This document shows positions 1 through 8,006 of a stretch of 64,000 bases of DNA, one piece after another. Each line of letters starts with the position of its first letter. Position 1 is the first letter of the stretch. Both the position numbers and the translations under genes were made by a program. The notes under the pieces were generated by a model. It searched no databases. It saw only the letters and a program-made list of their open reading frames with translations, and was not told the origin of the DNA. Source of the stretch: a phage; sequence record MZ956761.1; one strand, written 5' to 3'.

Positions 1-308
1 AGCATGAAGTGCAAGATAACTACTCATCAAACGATTCTAAATTTTGGATGTATAGTTCAAGTAACATAGATGCATGTAAACTTAATAAAGTGAGTTTTCT
101 TCCTACTGAAAATTCAAATTTTAAACCTGTAGAAAAATGGCACGCTGACGCGATTGAGAAGTCTATCAAGGCAGTAGATGATGAATTAGTTAAAGCAACC
201 AATGAAATGCTAGAAGCTGAAAAGGTGTTAGAACAAGCTCAGTCAAGGGTTCAAAATCTGACAAAGCAACGTTCTAAACTGAACAATGCATTAAATGCAC
301 TGAATTAG
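1..308 (+). CDS. hypothetical protein, 5'-truncated at window edge, coiled-coil C-terminus
   Basis: Frame open to position 1, stop at 306-308; Leu/Ala/Gln-rich heptad-like tail. Confidence 0.4.
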   Translation, partial: HEVQDNYSSNDSKFWMYSSSNIDACKLNKVSFLPTENSNFKPVEKWHADAIEKSIKAVDDELVKATNEMLEAEKVLEQAQSRVQNLTKQRSKLNNALNALN

Positions 309-337
309 TTTACTTTGCCACAAGGATGTGGTATAAT
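308..337 (+). promoter_or_regulatory. T4-type early promoter (-35 GTTTAC, extended -10 TGnTATAAT)
   Basis: GTTTAC 308-313, TATAAT 332-337; near-identical copy at 45318-45347. Confidence 0.6.
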
Positions 338-365
338 GTTCTTACTTTCTACTGAGGAGATTATT

Positions 366-1367
366 ATGACTCGCAACGAATATATCAAATCATTCAATAG
401 CGTTATTGATGATAAAGCTATACCGATGTTTGGCCAAAATAGCGTTCTTTCTATTATCAATCAGTGGCTCAATAGTGTTGATGCAGGTATTGTTTCTTCT
501 GCTAAATTTATTCATGAAATTCGTAAAATTTCTAGCCGTGTAGATAAAGATGTTATCAAGAAAACCTTTAAAGAGTCTCGTCTTCTTTCATATTTGGTTA
601 ATCGGGATATTCTTGGTAATTTTGGGAAAGAAATTAAACGAACCAAAGATGTAGTAGGATATAATTGGTTCGGTGATGTTAATTCTTATCATCTTAATGT
701 CAAAGAAGACCCTGAGAATATTTTTACTCGTCGTTGGATTAGTAATTTCAGACTTTTCAGAGGACAAATTCTAAAATCAGCTTCTAAATTATGTTATGGC
801 GATTATCGTCAAATTCATCCTTTGGCTTCTGATATGATTATCATAAAAGAATATGAACTTGATAAAAATAAAGTATCTATTTTTGTGAATTATGGATTTT
901 TTACACCAGAAACTAACCAAAAGAATATTAATAAATTTTTCTCAATTGCTAGCACTATAACTCGTCAATTAGAGACTGCATTACTTTGTATGGAAACAGT
1001 AGAAAATATTCATACATATCCTTTTAAGAATATATGCGGTTGGGAAGGATATAAAATTGTAGTTAGTCTTCGTGAAGTAAAGTGTGCGTACTCACCGACT
1101 GATAAAGAAATTTACCAACAAAAATGTGATGAAATTGTGAATACTCCTAAAGAAGAAACTACCCTTGAGGAACTAATGGAATGTCTTGACGATTCACCTG
1201 AACCGGTAGAAATTCGTCCAGAAGTTATTGCACTAGAAAAAGCTTATAAAGAAGTTCTAGAAATTTCTAATAAAGCACAGAAAGAATATGAGCAGGCTAA
1301 AAGGATTTGGGAAGAATCTGTTAATCGCTTGGATCGTCTTGAACAAGCTTTACAGTTAATTAAGTAA
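366..1367 (+). CDS. hypothetical protein (333 aa), C-terminal coiled coil
   Basis: ATG 366 with GAGGAG RBS 353-358, downstream of promoter 308-337; earlier in-frame ATGs lie inside the promoter. Confidence 0.6.
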   Translation: MTRNEYIKSFNSVIDDKAIPMFGQNSVLSIINQWLNSVDAGIVSSAKFIHEIRKISSRVDKDVIKKTFKESRLLSYLVNRDILGNFGKEIKRTKDVVGYNWFGDVNSYHLNVKEDPENIFTRRWISNFRLFRGQILKSASKLCYGDYRQIHPLASDMIIIKEYELDKNKVSIFVNYGFFTPETNQKNINKFFSIASTITRQLETALLCMETVENIHTYPFKNICGWEGYKIVVSLREVKCAYSPTDKEIYQQKCDEIVNTPKEETTLEELMECLDDSPEPVEIRPEVIALEKAYKEVLEISNKAQKEYEQAKRIWEESVNRLDRLEQALQLIK

Positions 1368-1419
1368 TTTAAAGCCAAGGATGGCTCGGAGTATAAATCA
1401 TTAACCAAGTGAGAAGAAC

Positions 1420-2349
1420 ATGAAAACTCGTAAACATTATATTGATTATTTTGATAGTCTTATTACTAAACACCGTAATTATCAGATAGGACACAGAGCA
1501 GTAATCAATAATATTCTTCGTGATTTCCTTCAATATGTTGGCCAGGAAAATCATATCTGTAAAGATACTCAGAACGCCTATTCTCATTCATTGGGCAATT
1601 TGCTTGAATGGTTTAAACGTTCTCGCATGTTATCTTCTACTGTAGCTCACGATAACATTAAAAACTTTATGAAGCCAAGCTTCATTAAATCTGCGACATC
1701 TATAACCGATTTGGTTGAATTTACTATTGTTAACGATGTTAAAAAGACCCATTTAGCTGATTGGTTATCTACCATTCCTGAAACTAAATTTGCTGATAAA
1801 TTTGCTTGTCAGTTCAATGACCAAGTGAATATGCTTTTTAAGCATGCTCGCAAACTATTTACCGCAGGCGATGACCGTACAAATACAGTTCATGTTAAGG
1901 ATTGGGTTATTGCTGATGAAGTAACACACAAGCCAGGTGGTTCATCAGTGTTAATTAATATCCAAGTTCCTTATTATTACTCACGTAATCTCGGCACCAT
2001 GAACTCTAGAGAAATTAATAAGCACAACAAAACTATTCGTTCGTTGTCTTATAAACTCCGCATGATGTTAAAAATCATGGACGTAGTAGAAATGTATGAC
2101 GAAATCGAAGATAATGGTTCAATGTTATACAGTTCACGTATTCTAATTAAACTGAAGAATCCTAATACATATAAGACAGTTGTAAAAGAGCCTAAAGTAG
2201 AAAAGATTGATAATATGAGTGAAGAACGCGAATACCTCAAATCTCGACTGGTTGAAGTTGAAGCCCAGATTGCCGAACACACCAAATTGTTAAAAGCTCT
2301 TAATGCAAAAGCAAGTGGTTTACGTAATGCTATTGAGGTATTGAAATGA
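1420..2349 (+). CDS. hypothetical protein (309 aa), C-terminal coiled coil
   Basis: Long ORF, stop overlaps next start (ATGA). Confidence 0.6.
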   Translation: MKTRKHYIDYFDSLITKHRNYQIGHRAVINNILRDFLQYVGQENHICKDTQNAYSHSLGNLLEWFKRSRMLSSTVAHDNIKNFMKPSFIKSATSITDLVEFTIVNDVKKTHLADWLSTIPETKFADKFACQFNDQVNMLFKHARKLFTAGDDRTNTVHVKDWVIADEVTHKPGGSSVLINIQVPYYYSRNLGTMNSREINKHNKTIRSLSYKLRMMLKIMDVVEMYDEIEDNGSMLYSSRILIKLKNPNTYKTVVKEPKVEKIDNMSEEREYLKSRLVEVEAQIAEHTKLLKALNAKASGLRNAIEVLK

Positions 2350-2735
2350 AAAAGCGCTTATTAGAAGATATTGCAGCTTCAAGTAATTCCAGTCTAATTA
2401 AAATTATTATGGCTGGTGAAGAAGACGATCTGGAAATGCGTGGAAAGATTCACGGCTGCGACGATTTAGATTTTAAACCTCCAGCATGGGATGCTATTAT
2501 GGCTATGGTTGAACGACGTGAAAGAGCTTCTAAAAACGTTCCTAATTGCCCTGAATGCGGTACTGAACAGGTTCAATTGATTAACTGGCGTAAACCGGAA
2601 CTTGAATATAAATGCCGTCATTGTAAACACAAATTTAGCAAGCATGCTCCGGAAATGGTTAAATTACCTGACTCTACTGAGTTCTTTAAAGAACTTGCGA
2701 GTGTTCAACCAATGCCTAATAATATTTTGGATTAA
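2346..2735 (+). CDS. hypothetical zinc-ribbon protein (129 aa)
   Basis: CPECG...CRHC cysteine pairs; translationally coupled to upstream ORF. Confidence 0.55.
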
Positions 2736-2737
2736 AA

Positions 2738-2980
2738 ATGACCAAGCGTAAAGAATATATGGAGACTGCTGAAAAGGCAGTCCGTGAATTAGCAATAGCG
2801 TATTATAATGAACATGGTAAATTTCCTGATAGATACAGCGTGCTTAAATCTGCTATAACTCGTTCATATAAAAATATGCTATCAGAAGTAAGTGATATTA
2901 TATACAAACATAAAGAGCAAACGGGCCAAAGTCTTGATTACGATGAGACTTTTAAACAAGTACTAGGAATTAAGGAATAA
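2738..2980 (+). CDS. hypothetical protein (80 aa)
   Basis: ORF packed between neighbours, same strand. Confidence 0.5.
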
Positions 2981-2981
2981 T

Positions 2982-3245
2982 ATGTTTAAAGTATATGGTT
3001 ATGATAGCAACATCCATAAATGTGTGTATTGCGATAATGCAAAACGTCTTTTGACTGTAAAGAAACAGCCGTTTGAATTTATCAACATTATGCCGGAAAA
3101 AGGTGTTTTTGATGATGAGAAAATCGCTGAGCTTCTGACGAAACTAGGTCGTGATACTCAAATTGGTTTGACGATGCCACAAGTATTTGCTCCTGATGGA
3201 AGTCATATTGGTGGATTTGACCAATTGCGGGAATACTTTAAATGA
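2982..3245 (+). CDS. nrdC: phage thioredoxin/glutaredoxin NrdC
   Basis: 87 aa, CVYC redox motif; size and sequence agree with my recollection of T4 NrdC. Confidence 0.85.
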   Translation: MFKVYGYDSNIHKCVYCDNAKRLLTVKKQPFEFINIMPEKGVFDDEKIAELLTKLGRDTQIGLTMPQVFAPDGSHIGGFDQLREYFK

Positions 3246-3457
3246 TGCTCGAAGGAACTGATTATATCCATGACTACCGCGGAAGCGCGGTATATGTAGG
3301 TGATGAAGTCGCAGTTTACTATGGGTATGGAACTTTGATGACAGCCAAGGTTATTCAAATTAAAAATAATCGTGCTAAACTCGAAGTTTATTATTCTAAT
3401 GGTGAAAAGTCTATTTCTAAATGGAAATACGGCGATTGTATGGTCAAAATGGGGTAA
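3242..3457 (+). CDS. hypothetical protein (71 aa)
   Basis: ORF with ATGA overlap to nrdC stop. Confidence 0.5.
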   Translation: MMLEGTDYIHDYRGSAVYVGDEVAVYYGYGTLMTAKVIQIKNNRAKLEVYYSNGEKSISKWKYGDCMVKMG

Positions 3458-3459
3458 AT

Positions 3460-3630
3460 ATGATTTACGATATTAGTGTATCAAGAACTCCGTCAATGGT
3501 TACTATTCCAGCTGAAGAACTAGATCGTCTTCAGAAAATTGAAGAACTTCTTTGGGAAATTGAATCTGATTTGCCATCAGGACTAGAATCCTGGATTGAT
3601 TATGAAGAACTTAATAAATTGCGAAATTAA
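3460..3630 (+). CDS. hypothetical acidic protein (56 aa)
   Basis: First ATG after upstream stop; start choice uncertain. Confidence 0.4.
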   Translation: MIYDISVSRTPSMVTIPAEELDRLQKIEELLWEIESDLPSGLESWIDYEELNKLRN

Positions 3631-3640
3631 TTGGTGAAAA

Positions 3641-3961
3641 ATGACTATTGAAAATAAATTAGATGTTGATGCAATTCTGAGCGAAATCATCGAAGACCAT
3701 GATGCATTTTCAGAAAATTATGATTTCGATTTTTCGGATTATCTTAAACCTGTCGAAATAGAAGATTGGGTACAAGATGGCAAATGCCAATATCGGCAGT
3801 GCGTTTATTTTAGTCCAAAACATAACGTTTATGTGTCTGTAAATGAATCTCGCTCAGGTTCTTACCATTCTGACTGGTATTATGCAGTTCCTACAGTTGA
3901 ACTGGTTGAGCTTCGAGAACGTGTAGTAACTCAGACAGTACGAGAATGGATTACGCTATAA
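3641..3961 (+). CDS. hypothetical protein (106 aa)
   Basis: ORF, same strand. Confidence 0.5.
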   Translation: MTIENKLDVDAILSEIIEDHDAFSENYDFDFSDYLKPVEIEDWVQDGKCQYRQCVYFSPKHNVYVSVNESRSGSYHSDWYYAVPTVELVELRERVVTQTVREWITL

Positions 3962-4084
3962 AACCTTGGTGGGCGGCTAGATGGGAAACTGTAGAGCCAG
4001 AGCCGGAAGAACCGGTTTACACTGATGAAGAAACAGTATATAATGAACCAACGATAAATGACTTAATTGATATGGAGATGGGAC

Positions 4085-4489
4085 ATGATTACAGTAGATA
4101 AGTGGTTTAGAATTAATCGTGCTGATACAGGGCTGTGTAATTACTGGCCGGAACTTAGTGCAGGTGCTGTCTTTAAAGTTCGTGAACTTGCAAAAGAATG
4201 TGAAGATGATATAGAACCTGATACTGGAATTATTGAAATTGAACTTTCTGATGGAAAGATTATTAACATCTACGATAAGCCAATTACGTATTGGTGCTTA
4301 TGGAATACTGAATCAGTAGAAAATGGCGAAATTGAAGAAGTTGTAGAGAGAACTAATCAAGTTGTTCAGAAGCCTAAAGCCGATTTTCAAGGTGAACGCA
4401 TTTCATACGCATTAGCTAAATTAGCTGCACAAGAAAATAACGATGGTTATGAAGGAAATTTAATGCAAGCTTGCCGCAGAGTACATTGA
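4085..4489 (+). CDS. hypothetical protein (134 aa), 49.x/pin-region ORF
   Basis: ATG 4085 preceded by GGAGATGGG; listed ORF begins at TTG 4067. Confidence 0.5.
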   Translation: MITVDKWFRINRADTGLCNYWPELSAGAVFKVRELAKECEDDIEPDTGIIEIELSDGKIINIYDKPITYWCLWNTESVENGEIEEVVERTNQVVQKPKADFQGERISYALAKLAAQENNDGYEGNLMQACRRVH

Positions 4490-4582
4490 ATGGCTTGAAA
4501 CTCAAATTTCTTTTTCTGACCGAATGATTCAGCAATATAAGCGATTGCATCAAATGTTTTACAATACTTGAAAATAATAAAT

Positions 4583-4612: not shown

Positions 4613-5086
4613 ATGTTATTGACTGGCAAATTATATAAAGAAGAAAAACAGAAATTTTATGATGCACAAAACGGTAAATGTTTAATTTGCCAACGAGAAC
4701 TAAATCCTGATGTTCAAGCTAATCACCTTGACCATGACCATGAATTAAATGGACCAAAAGCAGGAAAGGTACGTGGATTGCTTTGTAATCTCTGCAATGC
4801 TGCAGAAGGTCAAATGAAGCATAAATTTAATCGTTCTGGCTTAAAGGGACAAGGTGTTGATTATCTTGAATGGTTAGAAAATTTACTCACTTATTTAAAA
4901 TCCGATTACACCCAAAATAATATTCACCCTAACTTTGTTGGAGATAAATCAAAGGAATTTTCTCGTTTAGGAAAAGAGGAAATGATGGCTGAGATGCTTC
5001 AAAGAGGATTTGAATATAATGAATCTGACACTAAAACACAATTAATAGCTTCATTTAAGAAGCAACTTAGAAAGAGTTTAAAATGA
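4613..5086 (+). CDS. 49: recombination endonuclease VII (Holliday-junction resolvase)
   Basis: 157 aa; CLIC...HLDHDHELNG...CNLCN zinc/HNH-like motif; matches recollection of T4 gp49. Confidence 0.9.
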   Translation: MLLTGKLYKEEKQKFYDAQNGKCLICQRELNPDVQANHLDHDHELNGPKAGKVRGLLCNLCNAAEGQMKHKFNRSGLKGQGVDYLEWLENLLTYLKSDYTQNNIHPNFVGDKSKEFSRLGKEEMMAEMLQRGFEYNESDTKTQLIASFKKQLRKSLK

Positions 5087-6900
5087 CAATTGAAAAAGAA
5101 ATTGAAGGATTGATTCATAAAACTAATAAAGACCTTTTGAACGAGAATGCTAATAAAGATTCTCGTGTTTTTCCAACTCAACGGGACCTTATGGCTGGTA
5201 TTGTGTCTAAACACATTGCCAAAAATATGGTCCCGTCTTTTATTATGAAAGCGCATGAAAGCGGAATTATCCATTTCCATGATATTGATTATTCCCCTGC
5301 TCTTCCATTTACTAATTGCTGTTTAGTAGATTTAAAAGGAATGCTTGAAAACGGATTTAAGCTCGGTAATGCGCAGATTGAAACTCCTAAATCAATTGGC
5401 GTTGCTACTGCAATTATGGCACAAATTACTGCGCAGGTTGCTTCCCATCAATATGGCGGAACAACTTTTGCGAATGTAGATAAAGTACTTTCTCCTTATG
5501 TTAAACGCACCTATGCAAAACATATTGAGGATGCAGAAAAATGGCAAATCGCTGATGTGTTGAATTATGCCCAATCTAAAACAGAAAAAGACGTATACGA
5601 TGCATTCCAAGCTTATGAATATGAAGTAAATACTCTCTTTAGTTCAAACGGACAAACGCCTTTTGTAACAATTACATTTGGTACGGGAACTGACTGGACT
5701 GAACGAATGATTCAGAAAGCAATTCTGAAAAATCGTATTAAAGGTCTTGGTCGTGATGGGATAACTCCTATTTTCCCTAAGCTTGTTATGTTCGTTGAAG
5801 AAGGTGTTAATCTTTATAAAGACGATCCGAACTATGATATTAAGCAGCTTGCTCTAGAGTGTGCAAGCAAAAGGATGTATCCTGATATTATTTCAGTTAA
5901 GAACAATAAAGCTATCACTGGTTCATCTGTTCCTGTTTCTCCAATGGGTTGCCGTAGTTTCTTGAGCGTATGGAAAGATTCGACTGGTAATGAAATTCTT
6001 GATGGGCGTAATAATCTTGGTGTTGTAACACTGAATCTTCCTCGTATTGCGTTAGATTCTTATATTGGAACACAGTTTAATGAACAGAAATTTGCCGAAT
6101 TGTTCAATGAACGAATGGATTTGTGTTTTGAAGCTTTGATGTGTAGAATTAGTTCCTTAAAAGGAGTTAAAGCGACTGTTGCTCCTATTCTTTACCAAGA
6201 AGGTGCATTCGGGGTTCGTCTTAAACCTGATGACGACATAATTGAGTTATTTAAAAACGGTAGAAGTTCAGTGTCCTTAGGATACATTGGTATTCACGAA
6301 TTGAATATTCTTGTCGGTCGTGATATTGGACAGGAAATTTTGACTAAAATGAATGCTCGTCTTAAGCAGTGGACTGAAAGAACCGGTTTTGCTTTTAGCT
6401 TGTATTCTACTCCTGCTGAAAACCTGTGCTATCGCTTCTGTAAACTTGATACTGAGAAATATGGAAGTGTAAAGGATGTTACTGATAAAGGCTGGTACAC
6501 TAACAGTTTCCATGTTTCAGTAGAAGAAAATATTACTCCGTTTGAAAAGATTTCTCGCGAAGCCCCATATCATTTCATTGCGACAGGCGGTCACATTTCT
6601 TATGTTGAACTTCCTGATATGAAAAATAACTTAAAAGGTCTTGAGGCTGTATGGGATTATGCTGCACAACATTTAGATTATTTTGGTGTTAACATGCCAG
6701 TAGATAAATGTTTTACATGTGGAAGTACACATGAAATGACTCCTACTGAAAACGGATTTGTTTGTTCTATTTGTGGAGAAACTGATCCTAAAAAGATGAA
6801 CACAATAAGAAGAACTTGTGGTTATTTGGGAAATCCGAACGAACGCGGATTTAATCTCGGCAAAAATAAAGAAATCATGCATAGGGTTAAACACCAATGA
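5083..6900 (+). CDS. nrdD: anaerobic ribonucleotide reductase NrdD
   Basis: 605 aa; C-terminal zinc ribbon CFTCG...CSICG and glycyl-radical motif RRTCGYLG; one uninterrupted ORF. Confidence 0.9.
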   Translation: MTIEKEIEGLIHKTNKDLLNENANKDSRVFPTQRDLMAGIVSKHIAKNMVPSFIMKAHESGIIHFHDIDYSPALPFTNCCLVDLKGMLENGFKLGNAQIETPKSIGVATAIMAQITAQVASHQYGGTTFANVDKVLSPYVKRTYAKHIEDAEKWQIADVLNYAQSKTEKDVYDAFQAYEYEVNTLFSSNGQTPFVTITFGTGTDWTERMIQKAILKNRIKGLGRDGITPIFPKLVMFVEEGVNLYKDDPNYDIKQLALECASKRMYPDIISVKNNKAITGSSVPVSPMGCRSFLSVWKDSTGNEILDGRNNLGVVTLNLPRIALDSYIGTQFNEQKFAELFNERMDLCFEALMCRISSLKGVKATVAPILYQEGAFGVRLKPDDDIIELFKNGRSSVSLGYIGIHELNILVGRDIGQEILTKMNARLKQWTERTGFAFSLYSTPAENLCYRFCKLDTEKYGSVKDVTDKGWYTNSFHVSVEENITPFEKISREAPYHFIATGGHISYVELPDMKNNLKGLEAVWDYAAQHLDYFGVNMPVDKCFTCGSTHEMTPTENGFVCSICGETDPKKMNTIRRTCGYLGNPNERGFNLGKNKEIMHRVKHQ

Positions 6901-7367
6901 ATTATGATAGATTTTATCCTTGCGATTTTGTGAATGGCCCTGGATGCAGGGTCGTTCTTTTCGTTACAGGTTGTTTGCATAAATGCGAAGGGTGTTATAA
7001 TAAATCAACATGGAATGCTAGAAACGGTGTTCCATTCACTGGTGAAACGCTGGAACAATTAATTGAATGTTTGAATAATGATTATATAGAAGGATTAACT
7101 ATAACTGGAGGAGACCCTCTCTATCCTGATAACCGAGATGTTGTTCATTGCATTGTTCAAACAGTAAAAAATCTTTATCCCAATAAAAGCATTTGGTTGT
7201 GGACAGGATATAAGTTTGAAGATATTAAACAACTAGAAATGCTTAAATATGTTGATGTTATTATTGATGGGAAGTATGAGAAAAATCTTCCGACTAAAAA
7301 GCTGTGGCGAGGATCAGATAATCAGCGACTTTGGTCAAATACCGATGGGGTGTGGAAACATGATTAA
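6897..7367 (+). CDS. nrdG: anaerobic RNR activating enzyme NrdG (radical SAM)
   Basis: 156 aa; CLHKCEGC (CxxxCxxC) cluster motif; ATGA overlap with nrdD. Confidence 0.9.
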   Translation: MNYDRFYPCDFVNGPGCRVVLFVTGCLHKCEGCYNKSTWNARNGVPFTGETLEQLIECLNNDYIEGLTITGGDPLYPDNRDVVHCIVQTVKNLYPNKSIWLWTGYKFEDIKQLEMLKYVDVIIDGKYEKNLPTKKLWRGSDNQRLWSNTDGVWKHD

Positions 7368-7482
7368 ATTGAATTATATTATGGACACTATAAATGATAT
7401 GATTTTTCATTTTGGTCCAGAATTTTATTCGCAATATAGTTTAGTGCTTATCAATGCTTGGTTAATCAATTAAGGGTAAAAT

Positions 7483-7695
7483 ATGTATAAATTTCGCAAA
7501 GGTTTAGCTGATTTTCTTACAACTGTAACATTCTTTCTGTTTATGGCAGTTGGAGCTATTTTCCTTATTCCTTTTATTGCTATATTTTTCGTGATTAGTT
7601 TGATTTCTCCAGAAAAAGGACTGTCTTCTAGCGAGTTCAATGAGCGTCTGGATAAAATTACTAATAAGCTGAATGCTGCTCTTAGTAAGGAATAG
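7483..7695 (+). CDS. hypothetical membrane protein (70 aa)
   Basis: Hydrophobic helix FFLFMAVGAIFLIPFIAIFFVISLI. Confidence 0.5.
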   Translation: MYKFRKGLADFLTTVTFFLFMAVGAIFLIPFIAIFFVISLISPEKGLSSSEFNERLDKITNKLNAALSKE

Positions 7696-7697
7696 TT

Positions 7698-8006
7698 GTG
7701 AAACAAAACAAGATTGAAGTCTATGGAATTCCAGATGAAGTAGGTCGTTGTCCTGGATGTCAATCAGTTACAAAACTTCTAAAGGAGCTCAATGCTCCTT
7801 TTACTTTCTATAAAGTTCTTACAAATAATGGTAAGATTGAGTATGATCGTCCACTGATTGTATCTCTTGCTAAACGCGCTGGATTCACATCTCTTAACAT
7901 TCGTTATCCAGTCATTTTCATTAATGATTCTAGACAAAAGAACATTAAACACTTCAAAGAAACTCTCATTTCACTCGGATATGATAGAGATATCATAGAA
8001 GACTAA
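7698..8006 (+). CDS. nrdH: glutaredoxin-like protein NrdH
   Basis: 102 aa, CPGC motif, GTG start; synteny next to nrdG. Confidence 0.7.
   Translation: MKQNKIEVYGIPDEVGRCPGCQSVTKLLKELNAPFTFYKVLTNNGKIEYDRPLIVSLAKRAGFTSLNIRYPVIFINDSRQKNIKHFKETLISLGYDRDIIED

Follow-up and report, generated by a model that had tools for sequence, protein, structure and literature searches.

T4 is the best-studied phage, though most genes in its region upstream of nrdC still lack a functional assignment. Expression of T4 NrdC.5 restores infection of cells that carry the Dsr1 sirtuin defense (Srikant, Guegler & Laub, eLife 2022, PMC9391042), and the TPR sensor of Dsr1 recognizes the late-made capsid protein (PMC12803255). 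The NrdC.5 paper (PMC9391042) gives no mechanism and notes neither a kinship with NrdC.3 and NrdC.4 nor a coiled tail. Further inhibitors have been described: NrdC.1 is reported to inhibit Septu and NrdC.8 inhibits Druantia III (as bas37_0203, which a cluster look-up equates with NrdC.8; bioRxiv 10.1101/2025.11.20.689424), and an inhibition of OLD has been reported for T6 Gp49.2 (PMC13096335). Phage deleted for nrdC.1-6 remains viable on laboratory hosts (PMC9825161). How do the genes next to nrdC.5 compare with it?

The window, that is, the whole stretch of 64,000 nucleotides that was analyzed (sequence record MZ956761.1), comes from Escherichia phage ADUt, a Tequatrovirus. Of the three ORFs just upstream of nrdC, the first is the 3' end of nrdC.5, and the other two are nrdC.4 and nrdC.3 in full. 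An earlier note made from the letters alone had delimited these ORFs correctly, frame 3 of 1-308 having no stop codon between the window edge and the one at 306-308, and had rightly placed them in the variable region upstream of nrdC. The features of the locus are as follows.

3 to 308, forward strand: nrdC.5, 3' end, comprising its final 101 codons and a stop codon at 306-308 (translation)
129 to 305, forward strand: C-terminal heptad helix of NrdC.5, residues 276-334 (AF2 and heptad periodicity)
309 to 337, forward strand: predicted T4 early-type sigma-70 promoter of putative function, TTTACT-17 nt-(TG)TATAAT, in the nrdC.5/nrdC.4 spacer
354 to 359, forward strand: Shine-Dalgarno sequence GAGGAG of nrdC.4, separated from its ATG at 366 by 6 nt
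366 to 1367, forward strand: nrdC.4, 333 aa; Pfam Phage_T4_Y04OP (PF26897); phrog_1435, E = 1e-167
366 to 1142, forward strand: alpha/beta body of NrdC.4, residues 1-259 (AF2)
1143 to 1217, forward strand: low-confidence linker of NrdC.4, residues 260-284 (AF2)
1218 to 1364, forward strand: C-terminal heptad helix of NrdC.4, residues 285-333 (AF2 and heptad periodicity)
1420 to 2349, forward strand: nrdC.3, 309 aa; Pfam Phage_T4_Y04OP (PF26897); phrog_1435, E = 1.5e-115
2221 to 2346, forward strand: C-terminal heptad helix of NrdC.3, residues 268-309 (heptad periodicity)
2346 to 2735, forward strand: nrdC.2, 129 aa, zinc-ribbon (ORF list)
2738 to 2980, forward strand: nrdC.1, 80 aa, 98.8% identity with T4 NrdC.1
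2982 to 3245, forward strand: nrdC, glutaredoxin-type thioredoxin, the anchor gene of the locus
3641 to 3961, forward strand: gp49.2 orthologue, 106 aa, 95% identity with T4

The whole ADUt nrdC.5 encodes 334 aa and starts 697 nt to the left of the window (L001 7304-8308). Both its fragment in the window (E = 1.6e-28, 100.5 bits) and the full protein (E = 1.1e-111, 373.6 bits) score above the 30-bit gathering score of Pfam DUF7235 (PF23882), and NrdC.5 also matches phrog_2351. The full protein is 90.9% identical to T4 NrdC.5 (Y05A), of which it is the orthologue by its like position and tail, differing by the absence of 6 to 8 linker residues. NrdC.4 is 97% identical to its T4 counterpart; ADUt nrdC.3 is a divergent allele, with just 60% identity to T4 NrdC.3. 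The nrdC.2 ATG overlaps the nrdC.3 stop codon (ATGA), and the Zn_ribbon_8 match of nrdC.2 (E = 1.5e-5) lies under the curated Pfam cutoff. Within positions 1-3300, the site at 309-337 is the top promoter match (10/12, extended -10). Many database entries start nrdC.4 at an alternative ATG at 336 (343 aa). The -10 hexamer at 332-337 overlaps that ATG, which together with the Shine-Dalgarno sequence argues against this start. In the family alignments, NrdC.3, NrdC.4, and NrdC.5 all begin M(K)TR. One GenBank record (OQ466432) carries a thioredoxin/glutaredoxin label, which we rejected: no such match was found in Pfam, NCBIfam, or the PDB, and the predicted fold differs. The label was propagated from the gene names nrdC.x.

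The N-terminal bodies had been described as unrelated, which proved wrong. NrdC.4 and NrdC.3 match each other by BLASTP (E = 1e-7), both match phrog_1435 over their full length, and hhalign of the two families gave probabilities of 98.2 to 98.3% (about E = 4e-14 to 1e-14) over residues 2-237 and 3-247. PF26897 is carried by cluster representatives 94 to 99% identical to the NrdC.3 and NrdC.4 of the window. By these comparisons of sequence, NrdC.3 and NrdC.4 are full-length paralogues.

The link to NrdC.5 relies on profiles enriched with divergent orthologues from other genera and on a bridging sequence. Pairwise BLASTP of NrdC.5 against NrdC.4, NrdC.3, and NrdC.6 returned weak tail matches only (E = 0.2 to 1) and is too insensitive to decide, and direct hhalign of the shallow first alignments of NrdC.5 with NrdC.4 and NrdC.3 was non-significant (6.6% and 2.5%). 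An enriched DUF7235 profile (23 sequences) matched the combined NrdC.3 and NrdC.4 profile at 94.5% (E = 8e-8) over body columns only. With the bridging protein P0164 added, the match stood at 97.1% (E = 8e-11) and reached the C-terminus. In an exhaustive HMM search, the NrdC.3 and NrdC.4 profile matched P0164 full length (E = 1.4e-4); P0164 matches the NrdC.5 profile too. A near-identical copy of P0164 (NIH6_315) is encoded upstream of nrdC in the complete genome of Klebsiella phage PhiKpNIH-6 and aligned with both profiles, that of NrdC.3 and NrdC.4 and that of NrdC.5, the two values being 97.4% (E = 1e-11) and 96.5% (E = 9e-10). Negative controls for hhalign stayed at or below 1.3%. The exhaustive search found only 11 representatives, and the sequence family is therefore very narrow.

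The AF2 models agree with this picture. The mean pLDDT is 81.3 for NrdC.4 and 56.6 for NrdC.5; because the latter model is poor, the structural agreement rests on the order of secondary-structure elements, which is the same in both, and on shared Foldseek targets: BFVD proteins of phages Cronus, IME523, and PS2 were matched by both models. On the evidence of profiles and models, we conclude that NrdC.5 is a remote paralogue of NrdC.3 and NrdC.4, with Y04OP and DUF7235 forming one superfamily. A NrdC.5/NrdC.3 chimera (P0097) was also considered as a product of in-register recombination between paralogues. This was rejected; the two parts meet at a short microhomology and out of register, which makes the chimera uninformative on homology.

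The predicted common plan would consist of an alpha/beta body of ∼220 to 260 residues, a linker of 20 to 50 residues that varies and is probably disordered, and a single C-terminal amphipathic heptad helix of 42 to 58 residues. The tails (here the last 42 to 56 residues of NrdC.3, NrdC.4, and NrdC.5) are 70 to 74% L/A/E/K/Q/R/N with at most one Pro/Gly. Each was compared with 5,000 composition-preserving shuffles, at least 4 heptads being taken as the coiled-coil criterion, and hydrophobic a/d heptad periodicity exceeded the shuffles in NrdC.5 (P < 0.0002), NrdC.4 (P = 0.0006), and NrdC.3 (P = 0.0012). The tails hold 6 to 8 heptads without a stutter (8 uninterrupted in NrdC.5), and, counted from the C-terminus, their registers coincide. 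AF2 models the tails of NrdC.4 (residues 285-332, pLDDT of about 74 to 83) and NrdC.5 (residues 276-333, pLDDT of 78 to 91) as a single uninterrupted helix after a low-confidence linker. Among 50 non-overlapping ORFs of at least 120 aa in the window, a tail of this kind was confined to NrdC.4 and NrdC.3. Thus the earlier note was right to see coiled-coil-like C-termini in all three proteins. Searches of PDB sequences with the tails returned only non-significant matches, to the Myc zipper, keratin, and tropomyosin (E = 0.09 to 0.9).

The tail is the most conserved portion of the protein in each orthologue group, solvent-facing positions included, and its sequence is group specific. Between divergent orthologues, identity is 68% in the tail versus 41% in the body for NrdC.4 and 84% versus 56% for NrdC.3, whose tail is almost invariant across the family alignment. 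By orthologue group, dN/dS was 0.15 to 0.19 for tails and 0.27 to 0.41 for bodies (0.15 versus 0.41 in NrdC.4), with dS close to saturation for distant pairs. The body values show relaxed constraint and do not demonstrate positive selection.

NrdC.6, encoded just outside the window and assigned to Pfam PF26899 (Phage_T4_Y05B), is probably a fourth member of the family. It carries a heptad tail too, and Foldseek matched the NrdC.4 model to JS10 nrdC.6 (E = 2e-5, TM 0.39 to 0.45). Its best hhalign value, 39.8% (E = 3e-4) over the same collinear motifs, is below usual thresholds, with other comparisons at 0.3 to 18% and controls at or below 0.7%. Other T4-like genera have a single-copy relative at the same position (Acj61 p120/p121 and four others), which indicates that Tequatrovirus expanded the family to three or four members. 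As relatives, hhalign gave no support to NrdC.8 (175 aa) or to the ∼260-aa ORFs adjoining a family member in other genera (0.1 to 2.8% for both together). NrdC.8 ends in a heptad helix as well.

What might these proteins do? Since the NrdC.5 copy is already known to disarm Dsr1, nrdC.3 and nrdC.4 are likely to act in counter-defense too, and an expanding family of counter-defense proteins is the likeliest reading. We think it somewhat more probable than its competitors combined that nrdC.5, nrdC.4, and nrdC.3 are early, dispensable accessory genes within a counter-defense island, a tandem array of diverged paralogues encoding early inhibitors or decoys with a conserved, self-associating tail. 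Each paralogue, made early, would inhibit or decoy a different host immune sensor, which for NrdC.5 would be Dsr1. Target specificity would lie with the faster-evolving body. The conserved tail, to judge from its heptad pattern and conservation, may form a paralogue-specific, self-associating coiled coil that would lend avidity for oligomeric defense proteins.

The tail might instead be the part that touches the target, for example, by inserting into a Dsr1-like TPR/alpha-solenoid sensor, with the body as a scaffold or second contact. Helical or extended peptides are commonly bound by TPR domains. The Dsr1 sensor is such a domain (PMC12803255), and the conservation of solvent-facing tail positions would suit a binding surface, as would a stand-alone, tail-only ORF of 83 aa in one phage (L019), which is intact and keeps the motif. 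However, an arms-race interface usually evolves fastest and here the tail is slowest, and a regular a/d pattern over 6 to 8 heptads is more typical of helix-helix self-association. We regard this alternative as unlikely.

To much the same degree, we doubt that the paralogues besides NrdC.5 lie outside counter-defense, whether in another early host-takeover or regulatory role or as slowly decaying duplicates that no longer have a function. For nrdC.3, nrdC.4, and nrdC.6, there is no reported phenotype; the region is dispensable on laboratory strains (PMC9825161); and losses, fusions, and truncations occur, as in the P0097 chimera, in the remnant of L019, and in the frameshifted nrdC.6 of the T4 reference. 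Against this, the genes are intact in hundreds of genomes with dN/dS well under 1 in bodies and tails alike, their neighbors include four experimentally supported counter-defense genes, and NrdC.3 has the divergent alleles expected of host-range genes.

A bolder proposal, which we hold to be quite improbable, makes the C-terminal helix either an active plug for the TPR/alpha-solenoid sensors of Dsr1/Avs7-type proteins or the platform of a multi-headed NrdC.3/.4/.5/.6 hetero-oligomer that would neutralize several defenses at once. If so, duplication of one ancestral gene, which other T4-like genera also have, would have given Tequatrovirus an anti-immunity hub that is modular and can be enlarged.

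Still less probable is that three unrelated bodies each gained the same C-terminal docking helix, pointing to a common partner or a hetero-oligomer, as the earlier note had suggested. The tails are alike in composition, in heptad register, and, loosely, in the residues L-x-x-A-[IL]-x-x-L-K near the end; a tail can occur by itself, as in L019; and against plain composition shuffles the NrdC.5 tail scores above chance with the NrdC.4 and NrdC.3 tails (z = 3.9 and 3.4). In C-terminus-anchored alignments, however, the similarity shows no excess over shuffles that keep the heptad register (P = 0.09 to 0.9), and NrdC.4 versus NrdC.3 gives z = -0.3. We therefore rejected a tail sequence common to the paralogues. 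The tails have the heptad pattern in common and not the sequence; they resemble one another no more than any heptad helices of that composition would, which leaves the proposed docking helix unsupported. That each orthologue group has its own, highly conserved tail fits paralogue-specific self-association or target binding, not one shared docking partner, and the other members persist in phages without NrdC.3 and in those from which NrdC.5 has been lost. The earlier note was right about a family with a C-terminal heptad helix; its reasoning fails on the homologous bodies, which make separate acquisition of a tail unnecessary. Homology runs the length of the bodies, so the tail simply came along when the entire gene was duplicated.

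A role as virion neck or tail proteins, drawn from a likeness of the core to tail-terminator or tail-completion (gpU-like) proteins, is almost certainly wrong, given that structural Z is always <8 at 3 to 11% identity, that nitroreductases and designed proteins score equally and so mark the core as a generic two-layer alpha/beta sandwich, that the genes are dispensable and belong to an early transcription unit whose promoter is of the early type, and that T4 already possesses its own neck and terminator proteins.

On the favored reading, that of a counter-defense family, remote homology to NrdC.5 makes NrdC.3, NrdC.4, and probably NrdC.6 candidate inhibitors of other host defenses, perhaps with other members of the Dsr1/Avs7 sensor family as targets. 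The body, linker, and conserved heptad helix give them a common architecture that is open to simple truncations. In practice the gain is modest; the remote-homology link is of use but does not uncover a new type of system.

Part of the grouping was already in the databases. Pfam and PHROGs unite T4 NrdC.3 and NrdC.4 in PF26897 and phrog_1435, to which the proteins of the window belong, and Pfam holds PF26897 apart from DUF7235 (NrdC.5) and Phage_T4_Y05B (NrdC.6). The present analysis adds the profile-based link of DUF7235 to the PF26897 family, at hhalign probabilities of 94.5 to 97%, and, tentatively, that of Y05B. For the action of NrdC.5, DSAD1 of an SPbeta-group phage might serve as a working analogy. 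DSAD1, a phage protein, is reported to block the SIR2 NADase DSR2 by sitting on its sensor region, either ahead of the structural protein that activates it or in its place. It differs from NrdC.5 in target (DSR2), host clade, and architecture and is not reported to have a C-terminal heptad helix, and PDB searches found no sequence or fold relationship between DSAD1 and the NrdC proteins. The dmd-tifA-adfA "anti-TA island," NrdC.1, NrdC.8, and gp49.2 are likewise early and dispensable, of small or medium size, grouped in variable regions, and each directed at one host system. Those genes are mutually unrelated, whereas three to four adjacent genes here are paralogues. The locus is a family expansion in place, not an accretion of unrelated genes, and would offer a clean case of such an expansion among counter-defense genes.

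Over its first 3.3 kb, the window matches Escherichia phage ADUt (OQ466432, Tequatrovirus) at 100% identity and numerous relatives at 96%. The gene names were set from the annotated T4 genome and from protein identities. The ORF coordinates and the position relative to nrdC in the earlier note were right. Downstream (3') of nrdC, the gene order is 49.x, pin, gene 49, nrdD. The features are as follows (L001 is the ADUt locus sequence reaching left of the window).

L001 5410-5937: nrdC.8, 175 aa, ~2.1 kb left of the window
L001 6408-7295: nrdC.6, ~300 aa, directly upstream of nrdC.5, with a C-terminal heptad helix
3-308: nrdC.5 3' end (full gene, 334 aa, at L001 7304-8308)
309-337: strong early-type promoter, TTTACT-17-TGgTATAAT, upstream of ATG 366
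366-1367: nrdC.4, 333 aa, preceded by the Shine-Dalgarno sequence GAGGAG
1420-2349: nrdC.3, 309 aa
2982-3245: nrdC, preceded by nrdC.2 and nrdC.1, which follow nrdC.3

Are the N-terminal bodies of the three proteins unrelated, as had been proposed? BLASTP aligns ~150 residues of the NrdC.4 and NrdC.3 bodies (E 1e-7), each protein matches phrog_1435 along its full length, and their database relatives share Pfam PF26897 (Phage_T4_Y04OP). Comparison of the two family profiles gave 98.2% probability (E 4e-14, residues 2-237 and 3-247). With the first, shallow profiles, NrdC.5 had no significant match to NrdC.4 or NrdC.3, yet it carried matching motifs in matching order. When the NrdC.5 profile was deepened with divergent orthologues from loci of other T4-like genera, its body columns alone matched the combined NrdC.3+4 profile at 94.5% (E 8e-8), compared to ≤1.3% for control families, unrelated, from the same loci. 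The NrdC.3+4 profile, run exhaustively as an HMM against 1.84 billion representatives, returned just 11 proteins, among them P0164, a 315-aa database protein that matches this profile over its full length and the NrdC.5 profile at 65% (E 6e-5; tail BLASTP E 1e-5). Klebsiella phage PhiKpNIH-6 has a near-identical copy of P0164 immediately upstream of its nrdC, and this copy scored strongly with both profiles (97.4%, E 1e-11, and 96.5%, E 9e-10). AlphaFold2 models built on the NrdC.4 and NrdC.5 family alignments have a common order of elements (helix-strand-strand-helix-strand-strand-linker-long helix), and in BFVD both match the same uncharacterised proteins of the T4-like phages Cronus, IME523 and PS2. 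These data together identify NrdC.5 as remotely paralogous to NrdC.3 and NrdC.4, in body and tail, and the proposal of unrelated bodies was wrong. NrdC.5 itself belongs to Pfam DUF7235. An exact-sequence look-up puts ADUt NrdC.4 in a cluster of 1462 members represented by P0132, a protein of the NrdC.5 type. As NrdC.4 and NrdC.5-type proteins are far below 90% identity, the grouping is probably an artefact of clustering.

NrdC.6 is probably a fourth, distant paralogue: in Foldseek, the NrdC.4 model matches JS10 nrdC.6 (E 2e-5), and hhalign recovered the same motifs at 39.8% (E 3e-4), below the usual thresholds. In the T4 reference, nrdC.6 encodes 275 aa with a frameshifted C-terminus and the tail lost; the T4T and ADUt proteins have 295-296 aa. 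NrdC.8 had no detectable homology to NrdC.3-6 despite its terminal heptad helix.

The heptad-like C-terminal tails are real. In all three proteins, L/A/E/K/Q/R/N make up 70-74% of the last 42-56 residues, and Pro/Gly occurs at most once. A simple a/d heptad score, set against 5000 composition-preserving shuffles of each tail, was significant for NrdC.5 (p <0.0002), NrdC.4 (p 0.0006) and NrdC.3 (p 0.0012), and the register at the C-terminus is identical in the three. AlphaFold2 predicted one unbroken helix at residues 285-332 of NrdC.4 (model pLDDT 81.3) and 276-333 of NrdC.5, each joined to the body by a low-confidence linker. Such a tail is not a genome-wide trait, since only NrdC.4 and NrdC.3 carry one among 50 non-overlapping window ORFs of ≥120 aa. 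Upstream of these genes, the heptad helices at the ends of NrdC.6 (p 0.0002) and NrdC.8 (p 0.002) are likewise significant.

We then compared the tails between paralogues. In alignments anchored at the C-terminus, that of NrdC.5 scored above composition shuffles against NrdC.4 and NrdC.3 (z 3.9 and 3.4) but showed no excess over shuffles that keep heptad positions (p 0.09-0.2), and NrdC.4 and NrdC.3, clear paralogues, have tails that did not align at all (z -0.3). Thus, what the paralogues have in common is the type of helix, its register and a loose L-x-x-A-[IL]-x-x-L-K pattern at the end; the shared tail of the earlier note does not extend to a common sequence. In every orthologue group, conservation is highest in the tail, with tail versus body identities in divergent pairs of 68% versus 41% (NrdC.4), 84% versus 56% (NrdC.3), 39% versus 30% (NrdC.5) and 63% versus 41% (NrdC.6). 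The dN/dS ratios were 0.15-0.19 for tails and 0.27-0.41 for bodies, with dS close to saturation in distant pairs. Strong conservation of the helix per lineage, with differences from one paralogue to another, speaks against a single docking partner for all; the pattern fits self-association, or binding to a paralogue-specific partner. A family with a functional tail survives from the earlier reading, whereas different bodies on a common docking helix do not, because the bodies are homologous and the tails paralogue-specific.

The sequence family is limited to T4-like phages, as revealed by the exhaustive HMM search. Moonvirus, Marfavirus, Kagamiyamavirus and a Klebsiella phage have one member upstream of nrdC (315-354 aa, with heptad tail). 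Acinetobacter phage Acj61 has two adjoining members (p120 and p121), both also Foldseek matches, with p120 matching the combined profile at 87% (E 4e-6). Mosigvirus- and Dhakavirus-like loci carry NrdC.8-.6-.5-.4 without NrdC.3, and the largest array is that of Tequatrovirus. There are also signs of gene flux, among them the two NrdC.3 allele types described below. The database protein P0097, found in three contigs (the longest 167 kb), is a chimera in which nrdC.4 is deleted and NrdC.5 residues ~145-260 are fused to NrdC.3 from residue 137, out of register, at a short FN..VN microhomology. At 7456-7924 of a 173-kb T4-like metagenome contig (L019), the place of nrdC.5 is taken by a 71-aa membrane-protein ORF and an intact 83-aa ORF; the latter consists of the NrdC.5 linker and heptad tail only and would be an independent tail module or else a remnant.

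In many database entries, nrdC.4 begins at an upstream ATG (336) and encodes 343 aa. The promoter -10 hexamer (332-337) overlaps this ATG, and transcription from the promoter would thus begin downstream of that codon. Together with GAGGAG before ATG 366 and the M(K)TR start of all family members, this makes the 333-aa form likely the correct one. The 52-nt nrdC.4/nrdC.3 spacer contains a T4 late-promoter-like TATAAAT (1393-1399).

ADUt and T4 NrdC.3 are just 60% identical, with flanking genes at 91-99%; two such allele types circulate in Tequatrovirus and give a local mosaic. ADUt nrdC.2 (2346-2735), whose start overlaps the nrdC.3 stop (ATGA), encodes a CxxC...CxxC zinc-ribbon protein of 129 aa. 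Its T4 counterpart has 104 aa, and the two are 80% identical across their first 100 residues. T4 gene 49.3 (102 aa) has no ADUt counterpart at 3242-3630, where two unrelated small ORFs (71 and 69 aa) adjoin the gp49.2 orthologue (3641-3961). T4 has both the I-TevII group I intron and the homing endonuclease gene mobC; ADUt has neither (5083-7370), nrdD being one unbroken 605-aa ORF directly followed by nrdG. The OQ466432 product names over 1-4500 contain systematic errors: the label thioredoxin on all of nrdC.1-nrdC.11 is a name-propagation error, as no thioredoxin signature or fold was found in the nrdC.x proteins.

The body-linker-heptad-helix architecture common to the NrdC.3, NrdC.4 and NrdC.5 family is new; its helix may zip copies together, bind the target or join paralogues. 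As an accessory phage gene family expanded in tandem, it is an ordinary yet useful case. On laboratory hosts, nrdC.1-6 are dispensable to T4 (PMC9825161). A T4 clone carrying genome deletions does not plate on cells with ECOR17 dsr1, and expression of nrdC.5 alone brings back plating (Srikant, Guegler, Laub; PMC9391042). NrdC.1 is reported to inhibit Septu, and bas37_0203 of phage KarlGJung, which shares a 90% cluster with ADUt NrdC.8, to inhibit Druantia type III (bioRxiv 10.1101/2025.11.20.689424); T6 Gp49.2, the homologue of gp49.2, is reported to inhibit OLD (PMC13096335). As the window orthologues share 91-99% identity with the T4 proteins that were tested, these activities place the three ORFs inside a counter-defence island with one validated member. 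Our results newly link that member, the anti-Dsr1 protein NrdC.5, to the uncharacterised NrdC.3/NrdC.4 family and probably to NrdC.6.
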